The position numbers and the translations under genes were made by a program. Positions 6,150 through 32,031 of a DNA stretch of 64,000 nucleotides are shown piece by piece; position 1 is the stretch's first letter; each line of letters starts with the position of its first letter. Location of the stretch: NCBI GenBank assembly GCA_039919885.1, contig JBDSEV010000022.1, positions 43,284 through 107,283 of the forward strand. The letters are read 5' to 3'. Source of the DNA: Chitinophagaceae bacterium (GTDB lineage: Bacteria; Bacteroidota; Bacteroidia; Chitinophagales; Chitinophagaceae). The notes beneath the pieces are model-generated. The model had not been told where the DNA came from and ran no database searches. It worked only from the letters and a program-made list of their open reading frames with translations.

Positions 6150-6289
6150 GCCCCGAAATTACGGTCGGGCAGGCTACCGCAACGTTTAAAATATCAACAG
6201 CCTCTATGTATCTGTGTAAAATTAAATTTTTGTATTAAAAGATTACAAATTGTACTTTGGTGCTCAATAGATTCAATAAACACGCCATC

Positions 6290-9058
6290 ATGAAAAAACA
6301 CCCCCGTTATCTTGCTCTATTGCTGATCGTTTTTACATTTACTATTACCGCCACTGCACAAACCGTTACCGTAACCGGGAATGTGAAAAACAGCAGTAAC
6401 AAAGACGCGGTTCCTGCAGTATCTGTTACCATTAAAGGTTCTTCATCCGGCACATTTACCGATGAAAAAGGAGATTTCAAAGTTGTTACCGCGCAAAAAC
6501 TTCCGATTACACTGATTATCTCGTCCATTGGGTTTGAAACAAAAGAAATGCTGGTGACGTCGGCTTCCAGCCCGGTGCAGGTTGATTTTGTACCTGCTTC
6601 TTCATTGGGAACAGAAGTGGTGGTTTCTGCCAGCAGGGTGCCACAGCGTATCCTGGAGTCGCCGGTTTCTATTGAAAGAATAAGCGCGGCCAACATTCGT
6701 AATTCACCCGCGGCTTCGTATTATGATGTATTGGCGAATCTAAAGGGTGTAGATGTAGTTACGTCTTCACTTACGTTTAAAACGCCCAGTACCCGCGGTT
6801 TTAGCGCCAGCGGTAATACGCGGCTTAACCAGTTGGTGGATGGAATGGATAACCAGGCACCCGGACTCAATTTTTCCGTAGGCGGCGTGGTGGGGTTAAC
6901 CGAACTGGATGTAGACAATATAGAATTGCTGCCTGGTGCTTCCTCGGCTTTGTATGGCCCGGGTGGTATGACGGGCACCATCCTTATCAACAGTAAGAAT
7001 CCTTTTAAATACCAGGGTCTTTCCTTCCAAATAAAAGAAGGGATCATGAATACGGACAGTCGTTTCAGGTCTTTGTCGCCTTACCACAACTGGTCGGTGA
7101 GATGGGCAGAAAAAGTCTCGGACCGGTTTGCTTTTAAAATAGGGATGGAACTGGTGGCCGCCAAAGACTGGCTGGGCTACGATAAAAGAAATTATTCCCG
7201 CACCGGAACGAACGGTAAAATAATTGATGGCGACCGGGCAACAGACCCTAACTACGATGGTATTAACACTTATGGCGATGAAACGACGATTGATATCCGC
7301 TCCAATGTTTTCCCGGGTATTGCGGCCAGCGCGCCTTTCCTCAAGGGGTTCCTGGATACGCTCAATGGCGGCAGGCCGATGAATGTGTCCCGTACCGGTT
7401 ATAATGAAAACGAAGCAGTCAATCCGAATACCCTCAACTATAAATTGTCCGGAGCGCTTCACTATAAACTGTCAGCGAAAACAGAAGCCATCCTTGCTGG
7501 TCATTGGGGTACGGGCAGTACAGTGTATACCGGAAGCGAACGGTATAGCCTGAGGAACCTGAAAATTGGACAATATAAATTTGAGATCAATAATCCAAAC
7601 TGGATGCTGCGGGCTTATACCACGCAGGAAGATGCCGGAGAAAGTTACAATGCCACCGTTACTACGCGCCTGGTAAATGAAGCATGGAAGCCCAGCGGCG
7701 GTGCCACCGGTTGGTTCTCCCAATACTCGCAGGCCTACCTGGGAGCGCGTTTAAATGGAGCAACCGACTTTAACGCACAGACCGCTGCCCGTGCCGCTGC
7801 GGACGTTGGCAGGCCTTCGCCTACCAGCGACCAGTTTAGAACGTTGTTCGACCGGGTAAGGAGTGTACCCATTTCAAAAGGAGGCGGACTTTTCCTGGAT
7901 AAAACCAATTTGTATATGGTAGAAGGCCAGGCAAACCTGAGCCCGGTTACCAAAAATGTTGCTGATATTATCATCGGCGCCAACTATAAACGTTACCTCC
8001 TTAATAGTGAAGGCACGCTGTTTGCGGACAGCACCGGTAAAATTGGTATAAATGAATTTGGCGCATACATGCAGGCCAGCAGAAGTTTATTCAATGATGT
8101 GATTAAACTTTCATTGAGTGGCCGGTACGATAAGAACCAAAACTTTAAAGGACGCTTTACCCCGAGGGCTACCATGGTGGTAAAAGTTGCAGACAACAAT
8201 AACATCCGTTTCAGTTACCAGCAGGCGTACCGCTTTCCCAGTACACAACAACAATGGATTAATTTAAATATTGGTTCCAACACGCAGTTAATTGGAGGCA
8301 ACAAAAGTTTCATCAGTTATTACAACCTGAAGACAACGCCAACGTATGAGCTAAGCGCCACATCGCCTACTACGGTAAATACAACGGCGTATGGTTTCCC
8401 GGATTCAAAACCAGAATCGGTAACTACTTATGAAATGGGCTACAAAGGCCTGGTTGGGAAAAATTTACTGATTGATGCTTATGGCTACTACGGCGAATAC
8501 AAAGATTTTATATACCGCACGCTGGTGATTCAGCCTACGAGTGGTAATGTAAATGATGTGGTAACGGCATTGGCCAACAATGTTCCGGCCAGCAATGTGG
8601 GTCGTATTTTTTCTGTGCCGGCCAATACCACTTCAAAAGTTAAAACCTATGGCTTTGGCCTTTCTATCGACTACCGGTTACCGCTGGGTTTTATTGTTAG
8701 TGGAAACGTTTCTTCGGATAATTTAAAAGATGCGGGCGGGTTCAGGGCTTCTTTCAGCACGCCAAAATACAGAACTAATTTTTCCCTCGCCAACAATGGT
8801 TTTGGAAAGGGTAAAAGAATTGGATTCAATGTTACCTGGCGCTGGCAGGATTCGTTTTACTACGACGGCGACTTCGGCAACGGAGATATTCCTGCAATGC
8901 ACACGCTCGATGCACAGGTCAGCTATAAAGTTCCCAATACAAAAGTGGGCCTTAAGCTCGGCGCCAATAACCTGCTGAATCAGTATTATGTAAATGCAAT
9001 AGGCAATTCAATGGTGGGCGGTTTGTATTACGTGGCCTTTGCCTACAATGTATTTTAA
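6290..9058 (+). CDS. TonB-dependent outer-membrane receptor with an N-terminal carboxypeptidase-regulatory-like domain
   Basis: Start taken at MKKHPRYLALLLIVFTFTITATAQ (6290); the ORF-track extension from 6257 is unlikely. It has a CarbopepD_reg-like domain (VTVTGNVKNSSNKDAVPAVSVTIKGSSSGTFTDEKGDFKV), a plug region (ESPVSIERISAANIRN), and a long beta-barrel ending in the terminal aromatic YVAFAYNVF. Confidence 0.85.
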   Translation: MKKHPRYLALLLIVFTFTITATAQTVTVTGNVKNSSNKDAVPAVSVTIKGSSSGTFTDEKGDFKVVTAQKLPITLIISSIGFETKEMLVTSASSPVQVDFVPASSLGTEVVVSASRVPQRILESPVSIERISAANIRNSPAASYYDVLANLKGVDVVTSSLTFKTPSTRGFSASGNTRLNQLVDGMDNQAPGLNFSVGGVVGLTELDVDNIELLPGASSALYGPGGMTGTILINSKNPFKYQGLSFQIKEGIMNTDSRFRSLSPYHNWSVRWAEKVSDRFAFKIGMELVAAKDWLGYDKRNYSRTGTNGKIIDGDRATDPNYDGINTYGDETTIDIRSNVFPGIAASAPFLKGFLDTLNGGRPMNVSRTGYNENEAVNPNTLNYKLSGALHYKLSAKTEAILAGHWGTGSTVYTGSERYSLRNLKIGQYKFEINNPNWMLRAYTTQEDAGESYNATVTTRLVNEAWKPSGGATGWFSQYSQAYLGARLNGATDFNAQTAARAAADVGRPSPTSDQFRTLFDRVRSVPISKGGGLFLDKTNLYMVEGQANLSPVTKNVADIIIGANYKRYLLNSEGTLFADSTGKIGINEFGAYMQASRSLFNDVIKLSLSGRYDKNQNFKGRFTPRATMVVKVADNNNIRFSYQQAYRFPSTQQQWINLNIGSNTQLIGGNKSFISYYNLKTTPTYELSATSPTTVNTTAYGFPDSKPESVTTYEMGYKGLVGKNLLIDAYGYYGEYKDFIYRTLVIQPTSGNVNDVVTALANNVPASNVGRIFSVPANTTSKVKTYGFGLSIDYRLPLGFIVSGNVSSDNLKDAGGFRASFSTPKYRTNFSLANNGFGKGKRIGFNVTWRWQDSFYYDGDFGNGDIPAMHTLDAQVSYKVPNTKVGLKLGANNLLNQYYVNAIGNSMVGGLYYVAFAYNVF

Positions 9059-9083
9059 TAGTTAATTACCTCAAATCGTATTT

Positions 9084-10307
9084 ATGAATATTATCAAACA
9101 TATACAACACAGTGGTCTCACTTTATTAGCACTGTTTATACTGTTTACTTCCTGCAACAAATTAAATACCGATCCTACGCCGATTGCCATACCAGGCAAT
9201 CCTTCCGGTAGCACGCTGGCGCAGACACTGGCTGCCACTGCAAGCGACAGTTTGTACAACAGGCTTGTTATTCGTTCCGGTGTCTTAACGGCCACGCCAG
9301 CCACCATCACGGATGCGGGCCAGCGTTATACTATGTTTGTGCCGGATAACAATGTTATGAAAGCGTTTATCAACGCGCTTTCCGGGGGTGCGGTGCCGAT
9401 TGGTTCGCCGGACGCGGTTTTTTCCGGTTTCATAACCGCCAATATTCCGGTGGCATCTGCGGCAGGCATTGTGAGTTATAATATTGTTCCGCAGGCATTG
9501 CCCACCAGCAGTTTCCCTACGAGTTTTCCCAATTTGCAATATCCTACTATTTTAAACCCGGCACCATCGCTTAGCGCATTGTTGCGCTTAACCACTTTTC
9601 CCAGTAAGCGCGGTGCAATAACCTGGGTAAATAACGTTCCGCTGGCTGCTGCAGATGCCATTGCTTCCAACGGTATTATACACCATACTGCCGGAATTGC
9701 ATTGCCACCTACCGCCAGTTTATGGAGTCGTATCAGTACCGACCCTGACATGACCTATTTTAAAGCCGCGGTACAGCGTGGCGACAGTGGTACCGCAGCT
9801 GCCAGTACGCTGCAGGCGGGTCTTGACAATATCGGCGCCAACCTCACCGTATTTGTTCCTTCGGATTCTGCGATGCGTGCGGCGCTCACTGGTTTGATTG
9901 CACAGGGACTGATTGCGCAGGGTGTTCCCGCAGGTATTGCGCTGGCGCAGGCGGGCGCACTGGCTGCAACGCCAGCGGTGTTCAGCAACCCGCTTTTATA
10001 TACTGCGCTTACACCTACGTTGGTAAAGGGGATTGCGGTGTACCATATTTTGGGTACCCGCGCTTTTACGGTTAACCTGCCCACTACTGCGGCCAGCTTT
10101 AAAACACTGCTCACCAGTGCGGTGCCCACACACCCGGGTGTAAGTATACAGGCAACTTTTACCGGGCCGGTAGTAACGGCAGCAACGGTAAAGGGTGTGG
10201 CCAATGCAACGCCTTCTATAATTTTTATCAATTCGCAAAGCAGCAGCGATCAAAACGCTACCAATGGTGTGCTGCATAAAATTGACCAGGTACTTTTGCC
10301 GCAATAA
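9084..10307 (+). CDS. Fasciclin (FAS1) repeat lipoprotein
   Basis: Lipobox-like signal (LFILFTSCNK). FAS1 motifs are repeated: YTMFVPDNNVMKAF, NGIIHHTAGIALP, LTVFVPSDSAMRAA and NGVLHKIDQVLLPQ. Confidence 0.8.
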   Translation: MNIIKHIQHSGLTLLALFILFTSCNKLNTDPTPIAIPGNPSGSTLAQTLAATASDSLYNRLVIRSGVLTATPATITDAGQRYTMFVPDNNVMKAFINALSGGAVPIGSPDAVFSGFITANIPVASAAGIVSYNIVPQALPTSSFPTSFPNLQYPTILNPAPSLSALLRLTTFPSKRGAITWVNNVPLAAADAIASNGIIHHTAGIALPPTASLWSRISTDPDMTYFKAAVQRGDSGTAAASTLQAGLDNIGANLTVFVPSDSAMRAALTGLIAQGLIAQGVPAGIALAQAGALAATPAVFSNPLLYTALTPTLVKGIAVYHILGTRAFTVNLPTTAASFKTLLTSAVPTHPGVSIQATFTGPVVTAATVKGVANATPSIIFINSQSSSDQNATNGVLHKIDQVLLPQ

Positions 10308-10387
10308 GAAAGAATTACAGGTTCACCGATTTCGCGCGGAGCAGTTTCATGCAGGGAGGGGCGCAACATAAATAAAATCAATATAAA

Positions 10388-10723
10388 CAAGCACTCGTTG
10401 CAGCTCCGCGGCCGCGGCGGCCTGCGCCGGACCGCGCTGCAGATCAAACTAAAACAAATCAACTATAAATTAAATAAACGCGAACCCCTTCCGATAACAG
10501 CAGTCGCCGATAAGGTGTCTGAGCCGAATACTCGTTCTGGCAATAATGAACGAGATCACAAAACCAAGCAAGCACTAGTTCCGATGATACCAGTCGCTGC
10601 ATAAGGCGCCTCAGCCGGTTCGATTCCGGCGGTAGCCGGATTGCGGAGCAAAGAAGCGGGTGCAGCGCCGTTGCAGCTCCGCCGCCCCGGCGGCCTGAGC
10701 CGGATACCCGTTCCGGACACTTG
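10388..10723. repeat. Cluster of four degenerate GC-rich repeats of about 45 nt. One carries a canonical tRNA T-arm. Possibly decayed tRNA 3'-half or att-scar-like elements.
   Basis: Copies begin near 10397, 10498, 10590 and 10670. The outer copies share gttgcagctccgcSgccScggcggcctgMgccgga. All four align as cagYtcgc...ggYgYctSagccgR followed by a hairpin with a 5-bp stem and 7-nt loop. The copy at 10614-10630 reads gccgg-ttcgatt-ccggc, which matches the TpsiC arm consensus. Confidence 0.55.
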
Positions 10724-10884
10724 CTTCAAATAAGAAAACCCCCGCCATGCATTGCCCAAGAGAATCCCTTCATCTCAACGCGTTGCCATTAAGTCAAAAA
10801 CCAGGTTGTGCCGGGGTGTTGGCTGCGCAGCCAGCTGCTGCACCACGCATACAAGCAGTAGAATGAATATATTTTTTATACTGC

Positions 10885-12288
10885 TCATTGCTGGTTTTTC
10901 GGTTTGGTAAGCAGCATGGTATCGGTATCAAACAACGGTACCTGGTAACCGCCGGAGTCAAGCGTTGCTGCGGGAAAGGCCTGCTTCAGCAAATTCCAGT
11001 CGGTATTTTTTACGCCGGTCCGATAAAAATAAATCGATCGCAGCATTTTCAGATCTTTCAATTTTAATAAACCGGCTGCGGTAACTTTTGTGCCTACCAG
11101 GTTGATTGATTGCAGTTGCTGCAAAGTGGAGAGCTTGCCCAGGCCCTCATCTGTAAGCCCGGTATTGCCGAGTTCAAGCCGGGTGATATTGTTACACTGT
11201 GCAATCATATTTATTGCAGTATCAGTAATCCGGGTGTCGTTCAGTTTTAACCACACCAGTTGTTTTTTTAGTGGCGCCAGCAGTTGCACTACTTTGTCCG
11301 TAGCACGGGCCATAGCAACAAAACTAACCATTAGATAATTACTGTTGAGTGCAACGGGCTGCACCACAATACCGCTATCCCGCAGTTTTTCTATCGCTGC
11401 TTCCGCTGCCTTTTCAACTGGAGCCGCAGGCACATCCGTTATCCGCTCCTTTTCCACAACGGTATTTTGAAGCGATAGCAAAATGGGTTTTATTTTTTCT
11501 GTTTGTGCAATGTCTTTTGTTTTTTTATCGAACGAGGCTCCGCTGGCCACCCACCAGTGCAGCAGCGCAATTTCTTTTTCGGTCAGCTGCGCCTTTTCTT
11601 TGGGCGGCATATGATGTTCATCTGCTTTTTCCAGCAAAATTCTTTTTATCAGCTCGCTTTCGGCTGCATTGCCGGCCTCAATGACAACGCCGCTCTTACC
11701 GCCTTTCATCAGCAAGTCCGGCTGATCCATTCTCAGCTTACCTTTCTGCTTACTGGCGCCATGGCAACCATAGCATTTGTTTTGCAGCAATGGCTGCACA
11801 ATTGCGGCATAGGCAACGGCTTCCTGCACATCCGGAATGGGTTTACTAATAACCGCCGTATCCGCGCCGGCAATATTATTTAAAGACCCGGTGAGGTAAT
11901 CAGATCCGTGGGTAAGCGAGCCGCCCAGGTGACCTGTAACGGTTAAAAGAAAAATTAATGCCACGGGCAATATCCATTTTAACCGGGTAACGATCGTATA
12001 CCGGTGCAGCACGTAATAAACAATGGATACCACTGCCACACTGATACCAAACCATTGGTGCCTGCCTGCCAGCGTTTCGTCATAATCGCCGCTGCCTGCC
12101 AGCAGGTAGCCGGTGATACAGGCTGCAACAGCACTGATCATTCCCCAAAACAATGTTGTGCCGATGGCATGCTGCAGGTGCAGGTATTTCTGCCGGCCAG
12201 CAAGCAATTGAAAAAAACAAGCAACCAGCAAAATGCCGATGGGAAGGTGAACCAGTACAGGATGAAAGCGGCCAATGAATTCAGACAT
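10885..12288 (-). CDS. Membrane protein: DUF2231-like 4-TM N-terminus, planctomycete-type cytochrome c domain and C-terminal leucine-rich repeats
   Basis: 467-aa ORF. The N-terminus reads FHPVLVHLPIGILLVACFF and is followed by further TM helices. The haem motif is CYGCHGASKQKGKLRMD. The LRR-like C-terminus reads LNDTRITDTAINMIAQCNNITRLELGNTGLTDEGLGKLSTLQQLQSINLVGTKVT. Confidence 0.8.
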   Translation of the reverse strand: MSEFIGRFHPVLVHLPIGILLVACFFQLLAGRQKYLHLQHAIGTTLFWGMISAVAACITGYLLAGSGDYDETLAGRHQWFGISVAVVSIVYYVLHRYTIVTRLKWILPVALIFLLTVTGHLGGSLTHGSDYLTGSLNNIAGADTAVISKPIPDVQEAVAYAAIVQPLLQNKCYGCHGASKQKGKLRMDQPDLLMKGGKSGVVIEAGNAAESELIKRILLEKADEHHMPPKEKAQLTEKEIALLHWWVASGASFDKKTKDIAQTEKIKPILLSLQNTVVEKERITDVPAAPVEKAAEAAIEKLRDSGIVVQPVALNSNYLMVSFVAMARATDKVVQLLAPLKKQLVWLKLNDTRITDTAINMIAQCNNITRLELGNTGLTDEGLGKLSTLQQLQSINLVGTKVTAAGLLKLKDLKMLRSIYFYRTGVKNTDWNLLKQAFPAATLDSGGYQVPLFDTDTMLLTKPKNQQ

Positions 12289-12419
12289 AGAAGAAACGGT
12301 GCGTTTTTAATTGCGGGCTGGGCAATTTTTTAAAAATTATTTATATTGGAATGCATCATTTGCTGAATGCCGTTTTTATTATTCACCTACCGGATATTTA
12401 AAAATTCCTGCTGACACTC

Positions 12420-13352
12420 TTACAAGTACCGTTGCCTGAGCAACTTCATCATGTGCACATTGATGGCCCATTGATCTGCCAGCGGTTGGCGCGTATAAGG
12501 CAGCGTGGGCATATAATCCGGCGGACCAAATTCGGTGAGGACGGTCATCCGTTCGCCACTTTTCTTTTTTCGTTCCACTACGGTATCCCACCAATCAAAA
12601 TGCTGCTTAACGGCGGCCGCCCACTCCGGTGCACGCGGATCATTTACCTGCGGTCCCTCCGCATGCCCAATGCGTGCATGAATGTGTTCTACCCTTGACA
12701 ACACCAGGTCTACCGTTTCTTTTTGATCCTGCAGCAGGGTTTCATGCACATTGCACCAGTGTGACACATCAAATGTAATTTTCAATGCAGGATTTTTTTC
12801 AATAAATGACCTGCAAATATGTGCCGCAAACATCATCCGCGATCGGTGTGTTTCGTGGCAGATGGTGATGCCCGTTTGCCGGGCCAGTGTATTAGTATGA
12901 TCAATAAAAGCCTGGTTCTGCTCGGCTGTAAAATAATCCCTGCCGGAGTGGCAATTGATATACAGCGGTTGCTGTATACTGTTAGTTGCGGCTGCATCCA
13001 CCATTTTCTTAAAAACACCGAGGTGTACAACCGGATCAGCTTGCGAGCCGCCACAAAGAAAACCAATGGCCAACTGGTGTTTTTTCAATGCTGCAAATAG
13101 ATCGTCCTGGCCTTTTTTTTCGGTGGGCCACCACATTTCGATTCCATCGTATCCTTCCTTTTTTGTTTTTGCGCAGAATTCGTCTAGCGTGCCGGCAAAA
13201 CCCCAGTTGGTATTCAGCACTTTTAGTTCGAAACCGGCTGTTCTACCAATGGCTGGCGGATGGGCCGCTGCAAAACTGTCCAGCGAAGACAAGACCATAG
13301 CGGTGCCGGCAGAACCGCCCAGTGCTAAAAATTTTCTACGGTTGATTGGCAT
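12420..13352 (-). CDS. Tat-exported sugar phosphate isomerase/epimerase-like protein (xylose isomerase-like TIM barrel)
   Basis: 310-aa ORF with a twin-arginine signal (MPINRRKFLALGGSAGTAMV). TIM-barrel family motifs: GYDGIEMWW, ITICHETHR and RVEHIHARIGH. Confidence 0.75.
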   Translation of the reverse strand: MPINRRKFLALGGSAGTAMVLSSLDSFAAAHPPAIGRTAGFELKVLNTNWGFAGTLDEFCAKTKKEGYDGIEMWWPTEKKGQDDLFAALKKHQLAIGFLCGGSQADPVVHLGVFKKMVDAAATNSIQQPLYINCHSGRDYFTAEQNQAFIDHTNTLARQTGITICHETHRSRMMFAAHICRSFIEKNPALKITFDVSHWCNVHETLLQDQKETVDLVLSRVEHIHARIGHAEGPQVNDPRAPEWAAAVKQHFDWWDTVVERKKKSGERMTVLTEFGPPDYMPTLPYTRQPLADQWAINVHMMKLLRQRYL

Positions 13353-13471
13353 AAATAGAGCGGATGTTTATTTTCAAGAAACAATTTTTAACCAGGGAGT
13401 CAATCAAATAGGAACCACTTGCCAGCTTTACAACCAGTCATTTCCATTTACCTGGGATGGTTGCTGCGTTG

Positions 13472-14977
13472 TTATGCAATGATATCATTGATCACATTGC
13501 CCGCCACATCCGTCAACCGGAATGGCCGCCCCTGGTACTGGTAAGTAAATTGCTCGTGGTTAAAACCCAGCTGGTTTAAGATGGTTGCCTGTATATCAAA
13601 TGGTGTTGTTTTACCGCTAATCGCACTATAGCCAATCTCATCTGTTTCACCGTAGCTGTAGCCCTTTTTAATACCGCCGCCTGCCATCCACATGGTAAAC
13701 GCTTCGGTATGATGATCCCTTCCCTTGAACGGCATGGTTTTGCCACCGCGGTTTTCCTGCATGGGCGTTCTGCCAAACTCACCGCCCCATACAACCAGCG
13801 TATCTTCCAGCATACCTCTTTGTTTAAGATCCAACAAGAGTGCGGTAATTGATTTGTCTACCTGCCGGCATTTGTTTACCAGCCCAATATCCACGGCGTC
13901 ACCTGCACTGGTACCGTGGCTGTCCCATCCCCAGTCGAACAACTGAACAAAGCGGACGCCTTTTTCTACAAGTTTTCGCGCCAGCAAAATATTATTTGCG
14001 AAACTGCCACTGCCAGGTTTGGTACCATACATTTCATGAATATAGGGTGGTTCATCATTGATGTTCATGACTTCCGGTACAGATATCTGCATCTTGTACG
14101 CCATTTCATACTGCGCAATGCGCGATAAAATTTCAGGGTCTTTATAATCTTCGTATTGCTGCTGGTTTACTTCATTAATGGCATCTATAGACGCTTTTCG
14201 TAAATCGCGGTCCATGCCATTGGGATCGTTGATAAACAATACAGGATCACCTTCGCTGCGGCACTGAACGCCCTGGTAAACACTTGGCAGAAAACCACTA
14301 CCCCAGACGCTCTTACCCGCATCCGGATTTTTTCCACCCGAGGTCAATACCACATAGCCGGGCAGATTCTGGTTTTCTGTACCCAGGCCATAGGTAATCC
14401 AGCTGCCCATGCTTGGCCTGCCCAAACGCGGTGAACCGGTGTGCATGAACAATTGCGCGGGTGCATGGTTGAACTGATCAGTAGTAACTGCTTTTAGAAG
14501 CGTTATTTCATCTGCAACGTTACACAGGTGCGGCAAGTGATCGCTTATCCATAAACCACTCTCACCGCGTTGTTTAAAATTTGCCTGCGGGCCCAGCATC
14601 TTGGGTACCCCGCGTATAAATGCAAACCGTTTTCCTTGCAGCAACGACTGCGGACAATCCTGCCCATCCAGCTTCATTAAATCCGGTTTATAATCAAACA
14701 ATTCCAGCTGCGACGGTGCCCCTGCCATGTGCAGGTAAATAACAGATTTGGCCCTTCCTGGAAACATCGGTGTTTTTGGCGCAAGGGGATGAGCTGCATC
14801 AAAAACAACGGGGTTTGTACGCGCGGTATTATTGCCACAGCCAAACAAAGAACCCATTGCCAATGCGCCCAGCCCCATTGCACTTTCTTTTAAAAAGTGC
14901 CGGCGCGTATGCAACTGCAGGTAAGCGTTAGCCGCTTCCTTTGCCAGCCGTTTATTATGTAATTCTTTCTGTGTCAT
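13472..14977 (-). CDS. DUF1501 family protein (sulfatase/alkaline-phosphatase-like fold), Tat-exported
   Basis: 501-aa ORF with a Tat signal (HTRRHFLKESAMGLGALAMGS). Characteristic DUF1501 motifs: VIYLHMAGAPSQLELFDYKP, WDSHG and VVWGGEFGRTP. Confidence 0.85.
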   Translation of the reverse strand: MTQKELHNKRLAKEAANAYLQLHTRRHFLKESAMGLGALAMGSLFGCGNNTARTNPVVFDAAHPLAPKTPMFPGRAKSVIYLHMAGAPSQLELFDYKPDLMKLDGQDCPQSLLQGKRFAFIRGVPKMLGPQANFKQRGESGLWISDHLPHLCNVADEITLLKAVTTDQFNHAPAQLFMHTGSPRLGRPSMGSWITYGLGTENQNLPGYVVLTSGGKNPDAGKSVWGSGFLPSVYQGVQCRSEGDPVLFINDPNGMDRDLRKASIDAINEVNQQQYEDYKDPEILSRIAQYEMAYKMQISVPEVMNINDEPPYIHEMYGTKPGSGSFANNILLARKLVEKGVRFVQLFDWGWDSHGTSAGDAVDIGLVNKCRQVDKSITALLLDLKQRGMLEDTLVVWGGEFGRTPMQENRGGKTMPFKGRDHHTEAFTMWMAGGGIKKGYSYGETDEIGYSAISGKTTPFDIQATILNQLGFNHEQFTYQYQGRPFRLTDVAGNVINDIIA

Positions 14978-15013
14978 GTTGCGCTTTTTATAAGGCAGCC
15001 GGGCCGTATTCAG

Positions 15014-17779
15014 CTAGTTCTTTGTTATCACTTCGTCTAAATTCAGGATCGTATTGATAACCACCACCAATGCTGCGGCGGCGGCTGTATTTCCTTTTGT
15101 ACTAAAACCACCTGCTATTTCACAGGCATTGTCTTTACTGGCAGTAAATTTTTGCAAAGCTGTTTCATACAATTTAAACAGTGTGCCCATTGCCGGTGGT
15201 TCAACAGCATGGCCTGTTGCTCTTTCATATACAATGGTAATTTGCTGCCGGGGATTACCGGGTACCGTTGCCTCCAGTCTTCGCGCCAGCTTTCTTGCCA
15301 TGTCAAGACTGGCTTCATCGTTCAAGCCTACCAATGCCTGCAGCGGTGTATTGGTTCTTATGCGCCTGGCAGTGCAGACTTCTCTTGCCACGCCGTCAAA
15401 CGTCATCATAGCAGGATAAGGTGCCGTTCTTTTCCAGTAGGTGTATACAGCCCTGCGGTATTTATTTTCTCCTTCGCTCAGTTGCCACTTAAGGCCGTCG
15501 TAAGGCGAGCGCCAAATGCCATCAGGCTGGTACGGCATTACACTGGGGCCGTACATTTTATTGCTCATCAGCCCGGTAACATACAAAGCCTGGTCGCGCA
15601 ACTGTTCAGCAGATAACCTTACCCGCGCGCCCCTTGAATAATATTTATTGGCCAGATCCTTTTCTATTGCATCTTTTGAAACATGCGAGTCTTGCTGGTA
15701 GGTGGCGGACAACAGCATTTCTTTCAGCAATTTTTTTACATCCCAGTTATAGGTATACATAAATTGGTACGACAAATAATCGAGCAACTCTTTATGTGTA
15801 GGGGGTATGCCCTGTGTACCGAGATCTTCCAGGGTTTCCACCAGACCGGTTCCAAAGAGTTGTTCCCAGAGGCGATTGACCATTGTTCTGGCTGTCAGTG
15901 GATTTTTTTTACTGGTTAACCACATCGCCAGTCCCAGCCGGTTATTGGGCGCACCCGCGGGCATTGGATTGAGCGCATGTGGAACGCCAGGTGTCACCGC
16001 AGCTCCTTTAACCAGCCAGTTGCCTCTCTCAAAAACATGTGAAATGCGTTGCATACCATCGGGGTTTTCCACCATAATCGGCGTTACCGGGGTGGACATG
16101 GTAAGTAAATGCCAGTATTGTTTTTTTGCTGCCTCATAACCAGGGTCATCTTTGCCCGGAAATGGATCGGTAAAATAAAACCAGTCGAACGTAATGCCGG
16201 TATCTTCAGGTTTCTTCAGATTTTTATTAGTGTAAGTGAGGTAAAAGTCGTGCACTCCTGCAATGGGCACCGCAGGTATAGTTGCTATCTGCCATCCATC
16301 TTTTGAAACCGCTACCGGAATAGAAACAATTACCGGCCCGTCTGGTCTGTCTGCATGGATTTGAAAAAGCCCGCCCGGTACGGATGATTTATAACGGTAA
16401 ATAAGTTCACGCTTATTATTAAAATTAGAATGCGGCAACCGCACCAGCCCATTGTTGCGCAACGCCGCCCATTTGGTATCGTTCAGTTCACTGTTCACAA
16501 ACTGATCGCAATACAATGAATTGATTGCAGGCTGCCAGGTCCGTAAAAACTGGTTGATTTCTTTTGTTTGTGCTGCCGTGGCATGTTGTTGCAGCCATGC
16601 ATTGAGGGTATCTTTTTCTGCGTTGGCCGAATCAGTAAAACTGCGCAGCACCGGGTAATCAGCGTAGGTGTCTTCGTCCCTGGTATTATTAAAAAAAGCA
16701 GAAAACTGGTAATATTCTTCATGCCTGAACGGGTCATAAGGATGACTATGGCATTGCACACACGCAAAGGTGGTTCCCATTAAAGCTTCCCAGGTGGTGT
16801 TCACACGGTCAAGCACAGCCGAAGTACGGAATTCTTCATTGTCAGTACCACCTTCATCATTGGTCATGGTATTACGGTGAAAAGCGGTTGCTATCAATTG
16901 CGCGTCAGAAGGATTGGGCATCAGGTCTCCGGCTATTTGTTCTGTTAAAAACTGGTCATAGGGTTTATTTTCATTGAATGCATTAATCACCCAGTCGCGG
17001 TAACGCCAGATAGTACGCGCATCATCGCGCTCATAACCTTTTGTATCGGCATAGCGGGCCAGGTCCATCCACATGGCCGCCCATCTTTCGCCATAGCGCG
17101 GCGAAGCCAGCAGGCTGTCTACAACATTTTCAAAAGCGTGGTCCGTCTTATCCGCGTAAAATTGTTTTGTTAGCTGATCAGTAGCGGGCATACCGGTAAC
17201 ATCCAGGCTTACCCTTCTCAATAAAGTTGCTTTATCTGCCTGCGGCGAATGACCGAGTTGCTGTGCTTTTAATTGCCGGAGTATAAAACGATCTACATTG
17301 GTTTTTGCCCAGTCATCTTCTGCGTTTCCAAAAAAGCCAAGCAGCCGCGTATCTCCCGGAACTGCTGCGGGCTGTACAGCAACATAGGCCCAGTGGTCTC
17401 CCCATTGCGCGCCTTGCTTTACCCAATTGCGGAGTACATCAATTTCATTTGCAGGGAGGGGATCGTGTTTATAAGGCATCCTTTCTTCCGGATCCTTTGC
17501 GGTAAGCCGGCGAATCATTTCACTGTGTTCCGGATCGCCGGGAATAATAGCGGGTTTACCAGATTCCGTATTGGCCAGCGCCTCTGACCGAAATAGTAAA
17601 CTGAAGCCTGCCTTTCTGCGAACACCGCCATGGCAGGTAATACAGTTTTTGTTGAATATGGGTTTTACCTGGGTGTTGTAATCAATTTTTTGTGCGCGTA
17701 TGCTGAATAGGTAGACCGCCACGCCCGCTACTAAAGCGACAATGATGAGCACTGATTTTTTTTGCATTAATTTCTTCAC
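15014..17779 (-). CDS. PSCyt/DUF1549/DUF1553 (PSD1) protein with planctomycete-type cytochrome c and an internal CBM6/35-like insertion
   Basis: 921-aa ORF with an N-terminal TM helix. It has the haem motif CITCHGGVRRKAGFSL, the DUF1549 region SPRYGERWAAMWMDLARYADTKGYE, the conserved CVQCHSHPYDPF, and the DUF1553 region RTMVNRLWEQLFGTGLV. The inserted segment ends ...AGVHDFYLTYTNKN...ITFDWFYF. Confidence 0.85.
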   Translation of the reverse strand: MKKLMQKKSVLIIVALVAGVAVYLFSIRAQKIDYNTQVKPIFNKNCITCHGGVRRKAGFSLLFRSEALANTESGKPAIIPGDPEHSEMIRRLTAKDPEERMPYKHDPLPANEIDVLRNWVKQGAQWGDHWAYVAVQPAAVPGDTRLLGFFGNAEDDWAKTNVDRFILRQLKAQQLGHSPQADKATLLRRVSLDVTGMPATDQLTKQFYADKTDHAFENVVDSLLASPRYGERWAAMWMDLARYADTKGYERDDARTIWRYRDWVINAFNENKPYDQFLTEQIAGDLMPNPSDAQLIATAFHRNTMTNDEGGTDNEEFRTSAVLDRVNTTWEALMGTTFACVQCHSHPYDPFRHEEYYQFSAFFNNTRDEDTYADYPVLRSFTDSANAEKDTLNAWLQQHATAAQTKEINQFLRTWQPAINSLYCDQFVNSELNDTKWAALRNNGLVRLPHSNFNNKRELIYRYKSSVPGGLFQIHADRPDGPVIVSIPVAVSKDGWQIATIPAVPIAGVHDFYLTYTNKNLKKPEDTGITFDWFYFTDPFPGKDDPGYEAAKKQYWHLLTMSTPVTPIMVENPDGMQRISHVFERGNWLVKGAAVTPGVPHALNPMPAGAPNNRLGLAMWLTSKKNPLTARTMVNRLWEQLFGTGLVETLEDLGTQGIPPTHKELLDYLSYQFMYTYNWDVKKLLKEMLLSATYQQDSHVSKDAIEKDLANKYYSRGARVRLSAEQLRDQALYVTGLMSNKMYGPSVMPYQPDGIWRSPYDGLKWQLSEGENKYRRAVYTYWKRTAPYPAMMTFDGVAREVCTARRIRTNTPLQALVGLNDEASLDMARKLARRLEATVPGNPRQQITIVYERATGHAVEPPAMGTLFKLYETALQKFTASKDNACEIAGGFSTKGNTAAAAALVVVINTILNLDEVITKN

Positions 17780-17955
17780 CTGGCAGGCAAATTAAGTGTT
17801 GTTAAAAGTAACGAATCCTGCCTGTTTACAGCATCATTTGCAGAATTAATTGATAAGTGGACGAACCAAAATATTTTCCGCGCCGGGGAGCGGGCTCTTA
17901 CCCGGCATGCTTTCCAGGCTTTATTACTGAAGCTGCGGTTGTAAATTATTGCAGC

Positions 17956-20145
17956 CTATTCTACCACAAACCAGCCATAGCTTTCTGCTGCAATTGTAAG
18001 GGTTACCGGTGTATTGTATGCCCTGTCAAGCTGTTGCAGTTTTCGCTGCCCGTTCAATACTATGGTTGCTTTGCTGGTAAGCCCCGCATAATAGAGCGGC
18101 ACTTGTATGGTACGGGTAATCGACTGTTTAAGCGGATTAAAAACCATTACGAGCGCCTTTTGCCTGAGCTGGGGATCCACATGCATCCATCCATCCCAAT
18201 CGCGGCCGTCGGCCCTTCTTAAATGAATGATGGCAGCATTTAGAATAGCGAAATATTTTTTATACCAGCTGATCACGCCGATCACCATTTCCTTTGTTTT
18301 AACGGCATCGTATAACCGCGGACCGCGGTAACAGGCCTGCACACCGGCGCCGTAATACTGCATCATTAACTGTTTATAATCCTCCAGGTGATCGCGCAAC
18401 GGTTCAAGCACGGCTTCCGGCCCACCGCCCTGGTATTTAGTAAGCGGCACAAAACCCCAGCTCATAGACGGCATTTTCTCCCAGGTACCGTCAAAAACAT
18501 TTTGCCGGTTTAATACCTTTTGTTGTTCCCTTGGCAGTGAGAAGTTCACCTCGCGGTAGCCCAGCGCAATTTTATTGGTGCCATCCAGGAAATACCAATC
18601 GGGCGTATTCACATACACGCCATTTTCATTGCACCAGTGGTACAGGCTTTTTTGTAATTCCATCTGGCGCCATTGACTATCATCTAATCCCTTGTGCCCC
18701 GGATGCGTGGTAGAAGCGCATACATCTCCCGGGTAAGGACCATCGTTTTCAAAAATATTAAACCCGGTATTACTGATGAAGTACTGTAGTTTCTGCAGGT
18801 AGGCAAGGCCCCATTTGCTGCCATAACAAGGTGCGTTGCCAAAAAAAGCGCCACCCGGTTTGCCGGTAGCAGCATCAATTACATCATCCTCGTCACTTAT
18901 TTTTCTTGAACTGAACAAAGAATAACTACCTATTAAAATATTGTTGTTGTGTGCATAATCTGCCAGTGCTTTCCAGTGGCGTACATTGGCCGCCGCTGTA
19001 TCTTCCATATTGCAATGACTGCCAAAACTTAAAATCACCGCTTCGTAACCGGTAGCTGCGCACTGGTCAATGGCATTTCTCACCTCGTCATCTGTCTTGC
19101 TGACCAGGTGCATAAAAATGGGGTTCTCTTTTGTCCATGGAGCCGCCACGCCGTACATTCTGCGAATGGCCAGGCCCCTTCGCTCGCGATCATAGCTATC
19201 CATCAGCAGTTCATGGGTGCGAACAGAAGTGAATGTTTCGCCCGGCTGCAACGCTATACCCGGCGCTTTTTCCGGATATACCTCCAGCAAACACGGTGTT
19301 TGGTAATTATAGTTTACCTGTGATGTATAGCTGCTGTCTGCTTTCCAGTGGGTGGTCTGGTCGCTAATGTCATACCGCATTGCATTGTTAAAAGCATAAT
19401 TTGTTTCAACATATATGCCGTGTTGCTTCTTCATTTGTTCCGGCGTTCCCACCACCGCGCTTTCTTCTTCAGTTAATGCCAGTACCTCGTTCACAACCCG
19501 GTTTAGTTTCACCGGCTTCACGCCCTTGTTTTCTACTGACAACCATTTTACAACCAGCGGAATGCCATTGTACATTTCATAATGTACCGTCACCTCCAGC
19601 GCTTTTAACGCGGGTGCAGAATATCTGTATAGAAAATTGAGCGTAACCCCGCGCGCGGGCTTTAATAGCGGATAGGATGCAGACGCCGGTTTCCAATGCA
19701 GGCGTGGCCGGATGGTATCAACGGTATAATTTACAAAGTGAAAATCCTGGCTGCTGTCCTTCAGTTTATCCACCCATTCCGGCAGCAGGTACGCTTGTTC
19801 CTGTTGGTTGTACAACCCACCCACATTGTACTCCTTTTCATCAATGATTAAACGCGCCTCCGGTTTTACTGCACGCAGCAGTTGCTGACCGTTGCTGAGG
19901 TTTTTATAATCCGTACACGCAACGTTGGGCGAGAGTCGGAAAACTCTTTTAACAAGTCCGTTGTACAATACAATGTCTTTTCCATCGGCCGATTTGTAAA
20001 CAGCAGCACTTTCCGTTGCGGGCACAACCAGCCAGTCAGTACTTGCATTCTTATCTTTTTTACCGTCGTACACAGGTAGCTTTTCCTGCGCACTGGTAAC
20101 AGTTAGTTTTATAATAAACAGAACAATGGCGGATATTTTCTTCAT
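17956..20145 (-). CDS. Secreted hypothetical protein, possibly a (beta/alpha)8 glycosidase-like enzyme; family not recognised
   Basis: 729-aa ORF with a signal peptide (MKKISAIVLFIIKLTVTSAQ). It lies co-directionally between a GH29 gene and the DUF1553 gene. The central region (GYEAVILSFGSHCNMEDT...YAHNNNILIGSYS...NIFENDGPYPGD) resembles a TIM-barrel hydrolase, but I cannot assign a CAZy family by eye. Confidence 0.6.
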   Translation of the reverse strand: MKKISAIVLFIIKLTVTSAQEKLPVYDGKKDKNASTDWLVVPATESAAVYKSADGKDIVLYNGLVKRVFRLSPNVACTDYKNLSNGQQLLRAVKPEARLIIDEKEYNVGGLYNQQEQAYLLPEWVDKLKDSSQDFHFVNYTVDTIRPRLHWKPASASYPLLKPARGVTLNFLYRYSAPALKALEVTVHYEMYNGIPLVVKWLSVENKGVKPVKLNRVVNEVLALTEEESAVVGTPEQMKKQHGIYVETNYAFNNAMRYDISDQTTHWKADSSYTSQVNYNYQTPCLLEVYPEKAPGIALQPGETFTSVRTHELLMDSYDRERRGLAIRRMYGVAAPWTKENPIFMHLVSKTDDEVRNAIDQCAATGYEAVILSFGSHCNMEDTAAANVRHWKALADYAHNNNILIGSYSLFSSRKISDEDDVIDAATGKPGGAFFGNAPCYGSKWGLAYLQKLQYFISNTGFNIFENDGPYPGDVCASTTHPGHKGLDDSQWRQMELQKSLYHWCNENGVYVNTPDWYFLDGTNKIALGYREVNFSLPREQQKVLNRQNVFDGTWEKMPSMSWGFVPLTKYQGGGPEAVLEPLRDHLEDYKQLMMQYYGAGVQACYRGPRLYDAVKTKEMVIGVISWYKKYFAILNAAIIHLRRADGRDWDGWMHVDPQLRQKALVMVFNPLKQSITRTIQVPLYYAGLTSKATIVLNGQRKLQQLDRAYNTPVTLTIAAESYGWFVVE

Positions 20146-20267: not shown

Positions 20268-22403
20268 CTACTTTATATGAAACAACATGGCCGCGGGCAA
20301 TTCTATTTCTGCTCCGCCTTCCGGTTGCAGCACTACCCTGAGTGAATTTTCTCCGCCGCTGTCGTAATACTGAACAGTAATGGCATGGTATCCTTTCTTT
20401 AAGGCTGCTTTTCCGGGCCCGCCGCCGCTATTGTCATTGCTTGCTATCTCCATTCCATCAATAAACAATTTGCTGCCGTCATCGGAACTAAGCGAAAAAG
20501 TATAGAAACCATCTTTCGCAATTTTAATATACCCATCAAATACAAATGCAAATTTTTCCTTGCGTTGTTTTAATGAAAGCGAAATGACAGTAGCAATGCC
20601 AGTTTTGTTTACCGGCGTACTGGCAATTGACTGAAGGCTTACGCTACCAGTAGGCTCATAATACTTATACGCCAGTCCGGGTGTTAGCAGTGCAGGCGCG
20701 CTGGCTTTCATCCATTGATAACGGATCACTTTCTCTTTAGCAATGCTGCCGGGTAAACCTGTTTCGGGAATACTGACTGCTTGCACAACACTTGTTTTAT
20801 CCAGCAAAATTGGTTTTGTATACAGCGCAGATTGTGCTGTAGGCGATGTACCGTCTGTGGTATAATGGATCTTTTCTGTAGCTGCAGTTTCCATTGACAC
20901 CAGCGGCTGCAGCGGCGTTTTGTAGACTGTTTTTATAGTAGGCTTGGTAGCAAATTTTCCATAGTTGCTTATCTTAATAGCGTACGCATACGGCGCTTTT
21001 ATAGTATTGGGATTGTAGGGCGGCAGGCTGATTACTATGTTTTCTCCTGTTTGTTTCCACTCAAGGTCTGCCTTAGTAGACAAGAAACTGATAGCTGTTC
21101 CCGGGGGCAGCGTAATTGATTTCAAAACCACCTGGTTGTTATCTGGATATCTGGGCAGAATGGCATATAGCGCGTTGGTGGAAGGATTGTAGGTATAAAA
21201 AACTTCTTTTACCGCATACCCCGGATCGGGGTCGATGGTAAGTTTTAGCAACAAGTCACCGCTTCCTGTTGCTGGTTTGTAATCCTGCAGGCCATCGCTC
21301 CATTGCGAAACTTTTTTCCAGCGCACGGTATTATAAATGGCTTCGCCGTTTATCTTCATCCAGTCGCCGATCTGCAGCAACCGCTCCTGCATAATTGGCG
21401 GAATTTTGCCATGTTCATCCGGGCCGATGTCCAGTAAAAAATTACCCCCACTGCTTACTTTGTCGATCAATTGCACTACAAGAGATTGTGATGAATTATA
21501 ATCCCAGGCATCTTCTTCACGGTTATACCCATAGCTGAAACCCATGCCACGGCTTTCTTCCCAATAATGATCTTCAAAATTGAGATTGGGCTGGTATTCG
21601 GGTGTATAAAATCCCGCATGTTTGAAACGTACGCCTGCGCCCCATCGGTCATTTACTACTACCTTATCTTTCACCGGACTTTCATTGTATAACCATGCTA
21701 AAAATTCCTGGCTTTTCCATTTTTCTGCAGGCAGTTCCCATTCGCCATCCGTCCAGAACACATCCGGCTGGTAAGTATTAATGAGGTCTTTCATCTGCGG
21801 CCAGGTGTGCTCCCGTACAAATTTTTCTTTATCCGCTTTCCACAACGGGTTGTACCACTCGTACAGCGAATAATACATACCGGCATGCACCGTTGTTTTT
21901 CTTACTGCCGCAAACAATTCTTTTATTAAATCACGCTTAGGGCCCACGTCTACTGCGTTCCAGGGAAAACCCCATGACTGGTTGGCCTCTTTGCTGGGCC
22001 ATAGCGCAAATCCGTCATGGTGCTTTGACGTTAGTACAATGTATTTAGCACCCGATTGTTCAAACAACTTCGCCCATTCATCGGCGTTAAACAACTCTGC
22101 TTTAAACTGATCTGCCAGCTGGTAATACGTGAGGTTGCTGAATTTCTTTTTATGATACGCCTGGCGCGCGGTATCAGTTCCATTAAGGCCGTTTTGGTAC
22201 CATTCAGCATATTGTCCTTTGCTGCTCCAGGCCGGTACGGAATAAACACCCCAGTGAATAAAAATTCCAAACTTCACATCTTTAAACCATTGCGGCACCG
22301 GCCTTGCATCCAGCGACGACCAGTTGGGTTGATAAGGCTGTGCAGACAGAAAACACAGCAGCAGGCAAAAGGTGTTTAGCAGTAGTAATTTTTTCATATA
22401 CAA
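20268..22403 (-). CDS. Alpha-L-fucosidase (GH29) with a C-terminal PA14 domain
   Basis: The GH29 signature is FGIFIHWGVYSVPAW...KHHDGFALWPS. The C-terminal PA14-like segment is FVFDGYIKIAKDGFYTFSLSSDDGSKLFIDG...GYHAITVQYYDSGGENSLRV. The start may be the MKKLLLL Met at 22397. Confidence 0.88.
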   Translation of the reverse strand: MYMKKLLLLNTFCLLLCFLSAQPYQPNWSSLDARPVPQWFKDVKFGIFIHWGVYSVPAWSSKGQYAEWYQNGLNGTDTARQAYHKKKFSNLTYYQLADQFKAELFNADEWAKLFEQSGAKYIVLTSKHHDGFALWPSKEANQSWGFPWNAVDVGPKRDLIKELFAAVRKTTVHAGMYYSLYEWYNPLWKADKEKFVREHTWPQMKDLINTYQPDVFWTDGEWELPAEKWKSQEFLAWLYNESPVKDKVVVNDRWGAGVRFKHAGFYTPEYQPNLNFEDHYWEESRGMGFSYGYNREEDAWDYNSSQSLVVQLIDKVSSGGNFLLDIGPDEHGKIPPIMQERLLQIGDWMKINGEAIYNTVRWKKVSQWSDGLQDYKPATGSGDLLLKLTIDPDPGYAVKEVFYTYNPSTNALYAILPRYPDNNQVVLKSITLPPGTAISFLSTKADLEWKQTGENIVISLPPYNPNTIKAPYAYAIKISNYGKFATKPTIKTVYKTPLQPLVSMETAATEKIHYTTDGTSPTAQSALYTKPILLDKTSVVQAVSIPETGLPGSIAKEKVIRYQWMKASAPALLTPGLAYKYYEPTGSVSLQSIASTPVNKTGIATVISLSLKQRKEKFAFVFDGYIKIAKDGFYTFSLSSDDGSKLFIDGMEIASNDNSGGGPGKAALKKGYHAITVQYYDSGGENSLRVVLQPEGGAEIELPAAMLFHIK

Positions 22404-32019: not shown

Positions 32020-32031
32020 GAGAGCTTTTCG

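Follow-up and report, generated by a model that had tools for sequence, protein, structure and literature searches.

A conserved four-gene DUF1501/PSCyt cassette in Chitinophagaceae and related Bacteroidota

Proteins with DUF1501 and DUF1549/DUF1553 domains are among the most abundant uncharacterized periplasmic pairs in Planctomycetota, Verrucomicrobiota, and Bacteroidota and have been flagged as such since 2012. In bacteria of the Planctomycetes-Verrucomicrobia-Chlamydiae (PVC) group the DUF1501/PSCyt-PSD1 pair is known as a conserved module with no assigned function, and a four-gene cluster was found that encodes DUF1501, a PPC-like protein, a PSCyt1/Big_2/PSCyt2/PSD1 protein, and a PSCyt1/WD40 protein (Kamneva et al. 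2012, PMC3542564). PSCyt proteins with carbohydrate-binding inserts have been noted, and in Verrucomicrobia sulfatase genes occur as neighbors of PSCyt genes (He et al. 2017, PMC5615132). A separate body of work concerns the 3-keto-glycoside pathway (AL1-AL4 and BT2156-BT2159), which consists of Gfo/Idh/MocA, DUF1080, and TIM-barrel proteins (bioRxiv 10.1101/2024.03.25.586180; Liu et al. 2021, PMC8121099). Its periplasmic "sugar phosphate isomerase" TIM barrels are 3-keto-glucoside 1,2-lyases, and the authors suggested that cytochromes might reoxidize the oxidoreductase in vivo (bioRxiv 10.1101/2024.03.25.586180). Here we analyze a four-gene cassette of the DUF1501/PSCyt kind. It lies in a 64,000-nucleotide (nt) stretch of DNA, hereafter the window, from a soil-type Chitinophagaceae bacterium (assembly GCA_039919885.1, contig JBDSEV010000022.1, positions 43,284 to 107,283). 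A preliminary description of this DNA had stated that the DUF1553/DUF1501 pair has no established function. We found in the literature on DUF1501, DUF1549, DUF1553, and PSCyt only comparative genomics and no biochemistry, so that part of the statement holds, but the module itself had already been published in 2012.

The cassette consists of four consecutive open reading frames (ORFs) on the minus strand, which we number in their direction of reading: gene 1 (DUF1549/DUF1553 cytochrome), gene 2 (DUF1501), gene 3 (xylose-isomerase-like TIM barrel), and gene 4 (membrane cytochrome c with leucine-rich repeats [LRR]). The spacers between them are 36, 119, and 131 nt. Our analysis reproduced the ORFs, coordinates, and gaps of the preliminary description, Pfam confirmed the domains it had assigned to the four proteins, and all five heme and twin-arginine translocation (Tat) motifs (CITCH, CVQCH, CYGCH, TRRHFLK, and RRKFLA) were found where it had placed them (Table 1). 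A scan of the four proteins with NCBIfam gave no useful match. One detail needed correction: the ORF of gene 1 stands, but the database gene call (917 amino acids [aa]) begins at ATG 17767 rather than at GTG 17779, and the ATG is likely the true start.

The preliminary description had treated the four genes as a unit and had named conservation of their neighborhood as the test of that idea. We scanned species-representative genomes, one genome per species, with an alignment of 14 gene 4 homologs; at least 590 related gene 4 stretches were confirmed, and for the best 80 of these loci we also retrieved flanking DNA of 10 kb. We took as informative the 53 loci whose upstream sequence reached 6.5 kb or more. 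Gene order was scored both by tblastn with the window proteins and by independent ORF clustering, and the two methods agreed. The survey covers Bacteroidota loci, with relatives down to about 50% identity.

The order DUF1553, DUF1501, TIM barrel, cytochrome c/LRR, all on the same strand, was found in 50 of the 53 informative loci. One of the remaining three lacked only the TIM-barrel gene, and two were degraded or divergent. Overall, the TIM-barrel gene was present in 72 of 81 loci; it was also missing from four of the short ones. The closest homologs of the window proteins are in metagenome-assembled genomes (MAGs) of Chitinophagaceae, and within that family the cassette occurs in Terrimonas, Niabella, Paraflavitalea, Lacibacter, Flavisolibacter, Puia, and Flavihumibacter. 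Outside the family, Pedobacter and one Bacteroidia MAG have the complete cassette, and a Saprospiraceae MAG (gene 1 not detected) and a Chryseolinea MAG (no TIM-barrel gene) have part of it. Identities in the surveyed genomes were 48 to 95%, so these are not near-clonal copies, and the flanks of the cassette vary widely and are often unrelated among loci. The intergenic spacers of the relatives are short (medians of 67, 95, and 75 nt, with about half at 60 nt or less), and in some relatives start and stop codons overlap or almost touch. The heme-binding motifs are equally constant: there are two CxxCH motifs in 52 of 52 gene 1 orthologs and one in 81 of 81 gene 4 orthologs. Because order, strand, and motifs are kept across loci, the four genes form a truly conserved cassette rather than a set of accidental neighbors. 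The alternative, that four independent genes merely lie side by side by chance or inherited synteny, could draw on the fact that spacers of 36 to 131 nt in the window do not by themselves prove cotranscription and on the restriction of the surveyed loci to Bacteroidota, but the same order in several families amid unrelated flanks, together with the overlapping codons, effectively excludes it.

Small ORFs recur inside related cassettes. They encode four-helix bundles of the "23S rRNA intervening sequence protein" family or members of the PD-(D/E)XK_3 family and occupy the DUF1501-TIM or TIM-cytochrome spacer. Such inserts were seen in loci L004 (9586-9939), L005 (8303-8764), L015, L016, L023, L026, L030, L037, and L039.

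Their constant order in dozens of related genomes makes it very probable that the four products act together as a single membrane-attached unit. We tentatively propose, with slightly less than even confidence, that the four genes encode one membrane-tethered periplasmic assembly, present in Chitinophagales and some Sphingobacteriales, that works as modeled below. The model builds on the gene order, the export signals, the three heme c motifs, a CBM6-like module, a metal tetrad, and the LRR; from these we infer the assembly of a complex, its electron flow, its substrate, and its chemistry.

DUF1501 is the most conserved of the four proteins. Its orthologs are up to 95% identical to the window protein, and the median identity is 80%, compared to 66% for gene 3, 60% for gene 1, and 53% for gene 4. 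The Pfam match to DUF1501 (PF07394) has an E value of 7e-147 and covers 390 of 390 profile positions; the family is large, with 24,347 matching clusters at 50% identity. Of 64 orthologs, 63 have a Tat motif and at least 54 have a lipobox-like Cys. Because these two signals occur together, we read DUF1501 as a putative Tat-exported lipoprotein, an uncommon combination. The invariant or nearly invariant residues (S89, D95, K97, H171, D352, H354, E400, R403, R420, and H422) suggest a diverged metal-dependent active site.

DUF1501 falls in the alkaline-phosphatase/sulfatase superfamily. A profile built from 55 diverse DUF1501 relatives gave a weak, local match to S1 sulfatases and LtaS in a helix-strand "GDHG" region, and 24 of the 55 distant relatives had weak matches to the Pfam families Sulfatase and Phosphodiest (best Sulfatase match, 5e-6). 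The window protein gave no match to Sulfatase (PF00884) at an E value of ≤1, and sequence searches of the PDB turned up no informative relative of DUF1501 beyond the weak sulfatase/LtaS region. In the profile alignment, E400-F401 of DUF1501 sit at the metal-binding D-H positions of sulfatase 9bb9; other invariant Asp and His residues (D352/H354 and H422) could substitute for that metal pair. A regular-expression search found no C/S-x-P-x-R formylglycine signature in the window protein, which rules out an S1 formylglycine sulfatase, and no sulfatase, FGE, or anSME gene was found in the window. The "desulfating" role offered in the preliminary description is therefore not supported: the signature is absent, DUF1501 resembles sulfatases and LtaS only weakly and in a single region, and the window has neither a sulfatase nor an FGE gene.

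A broader hydrolytic reading has to be weighed at this point. DUF1501 might hydrolyze sulfate, phosphate, or phosphonate esters on glycans with no redox step, the hemes serving to maintain a redox-sensitive metal center or to sense redox state or a ligand, with gene 4 as the sensor. Hydrolases with complex metal centers, such as PhoD and PhoX, are typically exported by Tat, and membership in the sulfatase/phosphodiesterase superfamily points the same way. The many invariant Arg residues of the gene 1 PSD1 domain could bind anions, and in Verrucomicrobia the neighbors of PSCyt genes include sulfatase genes (He et al. 2017, PMC5615132). However, the C/SxPxR signature is missing, the "DH" metal pair of sulfatases appears to be replaced by "EF," genes for a sulfatase, FGE, or anSME are absent from the window, and gene 4 has no signaling output domain. 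Three conserved hemes would also be a heavy investment for maintenance alone. We consider ester hydrolysis of this kind unlikely in comparison with the membrane-tethered assembly that we prefer.

Gene 1 would supply that assembly with two of its hemes and its glycan-binding module. The domain order is PSCyt1 (1.6e-14), PSCyt2/DUF1549 (4e-84), a CBM6-like beta-sandwich, and PSD1/DUF1553 (1.6e-88), and the orthologs from 52 loci are 54 to 81% identical. The N terminus has a hydrophobic helix with no obvious cleavage site, so that the protein is predicted to be an N-terminally anchored c-type cytochrome with two hemes. In PSCyt1, residues C42, C45, M97, and P98 are invariant in the ortholog alignment, and the invariant "RMP" downstream of CITCH probably gives a Met axial ligand; in a Protein Data Bank (PDB) sequence search this domain was weakly similar to the c-type cytochrome FoxE (5mab). 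Around the second motif, C336, C339, H340, H342, Y344, and D345 are invariant in 30 orthologs. The Pfam match of the insert to CBM_6 (1.3e-5) is below the cutoff. In the AlphaFold2 model, however, the beta-sandwich has a predicted local distance difference test (pLDDT) score of 84 to 94, and the top matches of the gene 1 model in a Foldseek search of the PDB were the CBM6 modules 1gmm and 2v4v (E value, 1.8e-6; target TM-score, 0.75). These matches to the model confirm a predicted CBM6 fold for the insert, which is conserved among gene 1 orthologs.

The gene 1 model as a whole has a mean pLDDT of 66.6; the beta-sandwich and much of the helical scaffold are confident. Low confidence is found in the most conserved segments, near TNDEGGTDNEEFR...CVQCHSHPYDPF and in an Arg/Trp-rich stretch ending RRIRTNTPLQAL. 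Judging from the model, these segments, including the CVQCH region, could become ordered only with a cofactor or partner. The helical DUF1549/DUF1553 parts had no solved relative in either the PDB sequence search or the Foldseek search of the PDB.

Gene 4 encodes what is predicted to be a membrane-associated c-type cytochrome with one heme. Pfam gave PSCyt1 (1.5e-15), a match to DUF2231 just under the cutoff (24.9 versus 26.4 bits), and weak matches to LRR. The AlphaFold2 model has four N-terminal helices followed by a well-modeled LRR, which Foldseek matched to LRRs of the NLRP1 and RNase-inhibitor types; the domain with four transmembrane (TM) helices had no match to a solved structure in Foldseek. 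Residues H9, H14, H77, H120, H127, C172, C175, H176, and M227 are invariant in the alignment of 14 homologs. The first five His residues can be placed at the periplasmic face of the membrane domain, because the heme domain must be periplasmic and the charged loops fit the positive-inside rule; the site that they would form could bind a metal, heme b, or quinone. The preliminary description had left open whether gene 4 is a redox partner or a sensor. Pfam found no signaling output domain in it, and its anatomy suits a tether and electron-transfer partner better than a sensor.

Gene 3 is a member of the xylose-isomerase-like TIM barrels (Pfam AP_endonuc_2, 2.4e-9, above the cutoff). Residues E167, D195, H223/H225, and E274 are invariant in 27 orthologs, and thus the protein keeps the E-D-H-E metal tetrad typical of its superfamily. 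Its Tat motif is found in 64 of 68 orthologs and a lipobox in none, which is consistent with a soluble, Tat-exported TIM-barrel metalloenzyme. It has no close solved relative; the best PDB match was Art22 (E value, 0.008). The periplasmic location claimed for the system thus agrees with the retention of Tat motifs in DUF1501 and TIM-barrel orthologs and with the invariant c-type heme motifs.

Upstream of gene 1 and codirectional with it is a block of three genes (Table 1) that the preliminary description had called glycosidase-type. Two are, GH29 and GH30, but the third, encoding a 729-aa protein, had no significant match in Pfam, NCBIfam, or the PDB. Synteny of GH29 followed by this gene is limited to the closest relatives (7 loci, in which the 729-aa protein is 72 to 78% identical); its product is a candidate undescribed glycoside hydrolase or accessory protein. 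Across the large loci, GH29 or GH95, both fucosidase families, lies within 10 kb of the cassette in 28 of 53, in several arrangements: GH29 may adjoin gene 1 upstream, and GH95 or GH29 may adjoin gene 4 downstream, often followed by a calcineurin-like phosphoesterase gene. The window has no GH95 or phosphoesterase gene downstream; in their place is a 577-nt noncoding stretch (10308-10884) with a 36-nt GC-rich direct repeat (10396-10431 and 10669-10704; 92% identical, 273 nt apart). A past rearrangement or a repeat element may account for this stretch; an Rfam scan of the whole window gave no match.

With the CBM6-like match in gene 1, these fucosidase genes make the proposed carbohydrate link plausible, and taken as a whole the preliminary interpretation is supported in part. 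The cassette might nonetheless be a respiratory or detoxifying periplasmic system that acts on an inorganic or small organic substrate, the glycosidases being inherited synteny. Roughly half of the loci carry no neighboring glycoside hydrolase gene and lie instead beside housekeeping genes, such as those for fumarase, an enoyl-CoA hydratase family protein, or a class I aminoacyl-tRNA synthetase, and the DUF1501/PSCyt family is not only large, as noted above, but diverse. In contrast, the CBM6-like module is conserved in gene 1, GH29 and GH95 recur at different positions relative to the cassette, and the TIM barrel is from a sugar-acting family. We regard a noncarbohydrate function as improbable and retain a glycan-directed assembly as the preferred reading.

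A tie to periplasmic keto-sugar chemistry comes from genes inserted into related cassettes. In five loci (L012, L013, L016, L019, and L028), genes for a Tat-signal Gfo/Idh/MocA oxidoreductase and DUF1080 lie between genes 1 and 2; DUF1080, a 3-keto-disaccharide hydrolase family, was found in seven related loci. Neither occurs among the annotated ORFs of the window. Flavihumibacter profundi (L003, 1167-5707) has a second AP_endonuc_2 gene adjoining gene 1 upstream on the same strand. Farther upstream, on the opposite strand, are genes for ApbE (flavin transferase), an FGE-sulfatase-family protein, and a Gfo/Idh/MocA protein, the last about 3 kb from gene 1. These upstream genes may be accessory or maturation genes, and this locus has no glycosidase within 10 kb of the cassette.

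Such inserts raise the possibility that the cytochromes are an electron sink: they would reoxidize the tightly bound NAD(P)H of Tat-Gfo/Idh/MocA enzymes encoded here or elsewhere, the TIM barrel would be a 3-keto-glycoside lyase, and DUF1501 would be an accessory protein or scaffold. The five or six loci with these genes inside the cassette favor this idea, as do the upstream Gfo/Idh/MocA and AP_endonuc_2 genes of F. profundi, and cytochrome reoxidation was suggested by the authors of the 3-keto pathway study (bioRxiv 10.1101/2024.03.25.586180). But more than 45 loci, the window included, have neither Gfo/Idh/MocA nor DUF1080 in the cassette; the most conserved protein, DUF1501, is ill suited to an accessory role; and the TIM barrel is not detectably related to characterized lyases. 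We therefore find the electron-sink explanation distinctly unlikely.

The model that we prefer, a single assembly with DUF1501 at its center, can be outlined as follows. The N-terminal helix of gene 1 would anchor this protein to the inner membrane, and the CBM6-like module would bind a glycan or oligosaccharide. In this clade the substrate would probably be a product of the neighboring fucosidases, with fucosylated glycans as the leading candidate. DUF1501, as a metalloenzyme with no formylglycine signature, would be the catalytic core, because it shows the strongest constraint of the four (a median of 80% identity, as given above), and would act next to the second, buried heme of gene 1. Electrons would pass, in either direction, among that heme, the PSCyt1 heme of gene 1, and the PSCyt1 heme of gene 4. 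The LRR of gene 4 would dock on the complex, and the 4-TM domain with its five His residues would join the chain to the quinone pool or a terminal oxidase branch. The soluble TIM-barrel enzyme would convert a keto- or enol-sugar product by isomerization, beta-elimination, or hydration, as characterized superfamily members do in 3-keto-glycoside pathways. A more far-reaching reading makes the cassette a new type of periplasmic enzyme system linked to the respiratory chain, in which DUF1501 and a catalytic c-type heme of gene 1 would carry out a redox-coupled cleavage or modification of glycan substituents. We hold this reading to be possible but unlikely. If it were true, a redox-coupled DUF1501 would be chemistry new to the superfamily and the first functional handle on the very large DUF1501/PSCyt family.

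The architecture has a precedent in PVC bacteria, whose four-gene cluster encodes a PSCyt1 cytochrome joined to the protein-interaction repeat WD40 (PMC3542564). Several observations weigh against the model. The quality of the AlphaFold models for genes 1 and 4 is only moderate (pLDDT of about 67), and the window cassette has no recognizable dehydrogenase (Gfo/Idh/MocA, GMC, or PQQ domain). The main weakness is the chemistry itself: we know of no enzyme of the alkaline-phosphatase superfamily that is redox coupled, and to our knowledge the pairing of DUF1501 with a heme is without precedent. PDB searches found no detectable similarity of gene 3 to solved or characterized TIM-barrel lyases. For that reason, and because its gene is missing from about five loci (L036, L041, L068, L076, and L083), the TIM enzyme may be accessory. 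A glycoside hydrolase gene is missing from the vicinity of about half of the loci, and part of the conservation of the cassette could come from shared ancestry within one order.

Upstream of gene 1 is a promoter-like 12-mer, TTAATTTGCCTG, that resembles the Bacteroidota -7 element TAnnTTTG. Two exact copies occur in the window, the other being upstream of GH30 (24195-24206, minus strand); with one mismatch allowed there are four matches versus 0.93 expected, one of which (55097-55108) is upstream of mfd. The position and resemblance of TTAATTTGCCTG are those of a putative promoter element and hint that the cassette may have its own promoter, separate from the GH30-GH29-729-aa block. A scan for sigma-70 promoters and intrinsic terminators showed no enrichment over shuffled sequences, but the method is ill suited to Bacteroidota, and a hairpin after the 729-aa gene was no more stable than shuffled sequence (z = -0.17).

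Table 1. Positions in the window of the cassette genes, their motifs and domains, and the upstream features
Feature	Position	Strand	Basis or remark
Gene 1, DUF1549/DUF1553 cytochrome	15014-17779	-	921-aa ORF
CITCH heme motif of gene 1, aa 46-50	17630-17644	-	Motif search; within PSCyt1 (17474-17644)
CVQCH(SHPYDPF), second heme motif of gene 1, aa 340-344	16748-16762	-	Within PSCyt2/DUF1549 (16679-17296)
CBM6-like beta-sandwich of gene 1, between DUF1549 and DUF1553	16163-16510	-	Pfam, AlphaFold2, Foldseek
Gene 2, DUF1501	13472-14977	-	501-aa ORF
Tat motif TRRHFLK of gene 2, aa 24-30	14888-14908	-	Motif search
Lipobox Cys47 of gene 2	14837-14839	-	Lipobox-like L-x-G/S-C
Gene 3, xylose-isomerase-like TIM barrel	12420-13352	-	310-aa ORF
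Tat motif RRKFLA of gene 3	13323-13340	-	Motif search
Gene 4, membrane cytochrome c/LRR	10885-12288	-	467-aa ORF
4-TM DUF2231-like domain of gene 4	11908-12288	-	Pfam, AlphaFold2
CYGCH heme motif of gene 4, aa 172-176	11761-11775	-	Motif search; in PSCyt1
C-terminal LRR domain of gene 4	10954-11403	-	Pfam, AlphaFold2, Foldseek
Promoter-like 12-mer TTAATTTGCCTG	17784-17795	-	Ends 5 nt upstream of GTG 17779
729-aa conserved protein, family unassigned	17956-20145	-	Upstream, codirectional
GH29 alpha-L-fucosidase with PA14	20268-22403	-	Pfam
GH30	22447-24093	-	Pfam

Other genes of the window were noted in passing. A di-heme cytochrome c peroxidase/MauG-family gene (362-1600, plus strand) lies about 9 kb from the cassette. 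Convergent with the cassette (6257-10307, plus strand) are a TonB-dependent receptor gene (6257-9058), whose product has a CarboxypepD_reg N terminus and a SusC-like build, and a gene for a fasciclin-domain protein. At 2076-5087 and 25699-28305 are genes for a PQQ-type glucose/sorbosone dehydrogenase (GSDH) sorted by the type IX secretion system (T9SS) and an SdrD_B-repeat protein, and at 28624-41903 (plus strand) is a run of genes for large T9SS-sorted proteins (1039, 1592, 777, and 756 aa), the first two with GBD_T9SS_assoc galactose-binding-like domains. In a single 830-aa ORF (44740-47232, minus strand), a Mur-ligase (MurF-like) module is joined to an entire alanine racemase.

The cassette overturns nothing; it is a compact version of a long-standing module in cultivable aerobes. 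Mechanistic clues come from its extra parts: gene 3 adds a TIM metalloenzyme of a sugar-acting family, and gene 4 adds a membrane cytochrome that carries a putative docking domain. The bacteria that carry it include cultured, aerobic, fast-growing Chitinophagaceae and Pedobacter, among them Niabella aurantiaca DSM 17617 (L048), Lacibacter luteus TTM-7 (L054), Terrimonas pollutisoli (L012), Flavisolibacter nicotianae (L066), and Pedobacter sp. ASV12 (L078). Because these are more tractable in genetics and biochemistry than planctomycetes, the long-standing DUF1501 question becomes directly testable.

How the cassette relates to known systems can now be stated. It is not a SusC/SusD polysaccharide utilization locus: there is no codirectional pair, the TonB receptor (6257-9058) is on the opposite strand, and the fasciclin protein next to it is not SusD-like. 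With LacABC glucoside 3-dehydrogenase and gluconate 2-dehydrogenase it would share a Tat-exported catalytic part, one or more cytochrome c subunits, and a membrane link to the respiratory chain, but its catalytic candidate belongs to the alkaline-phosphatase superfamily and it has no flavoprotein, GMC, or PQQ subunit. A flavoprotein-cytochrome c dehydrogenase is thus rejected, Pfam finding no FAD, GMC, or PQQ domain in the four proteins. S1 sulfatases are distant relatives of DUF1501 at the level of fold, with one helix-strand-"G(D/E)xG" region that aligns (also with LtaS); unlike them, DUF1501 has no C/SxPxR signature and no Pfam Sulfatase match, and its metal-ligand pair appears to differ. 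The 3-keto-glycoside pathway uses periplasmic xylose-isomerase-like TIM barrels on oxidized sugars, and its Gfo/Idh/MocA and DUF1080 families are encoded inside the cassettes of five or six relatives. Gene 3 is of the same Pfam superfamily as the lyases of that pathway and keeps the E-D-H-E tetrad; it has no significant similarity to solved TIM barrels. The pathway set, however, has no DUF1501 or c-type cytochromes, and because neither the oxidoreductase nor DUF1080 is among the annotated ORFs of the window, the cassette is ruled out as such a pathway.

The closest system is the DUF1501 module of Planctomycetes, Verrucomicrobia, and Lentisphaerae. There, as here, a Tat-DUF1501 gene lies beside PSCyt1-PSCyt2-PSD1, and a carbohydrate-binding insert is possible. 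The window pair shows all the defining features of the module: PF07394, an adjacent PSCyt1-PSCyt2-PSD1 protein with two CxxCH motifs, and a Tat signal on DUF1501, which in the module is frequent but not obligatory. It differs in its host, a bacteroidote (Chitinophagaceae), and in that its DUF1501 appears to be a lipoprotein. In the PVC four-gene cluster, as in the cassette, another PSCyt1 cytochrome carries a protein-interaction repeat, which is WD40 there and LRR here. In the cassette, an LRR and a 4-TM DUF2231-like anchor take the place of WD40, and a Tat-TIM barrel that of the PPC-like protein; Pfam found no match to WD40 or PPC in the cassette, so that the arrangements are analogous and not the same. 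We conclude that the cassette is a variant of the known DUF1501/PSCyt module with a fixed four-gene composition in Bacteroidota.

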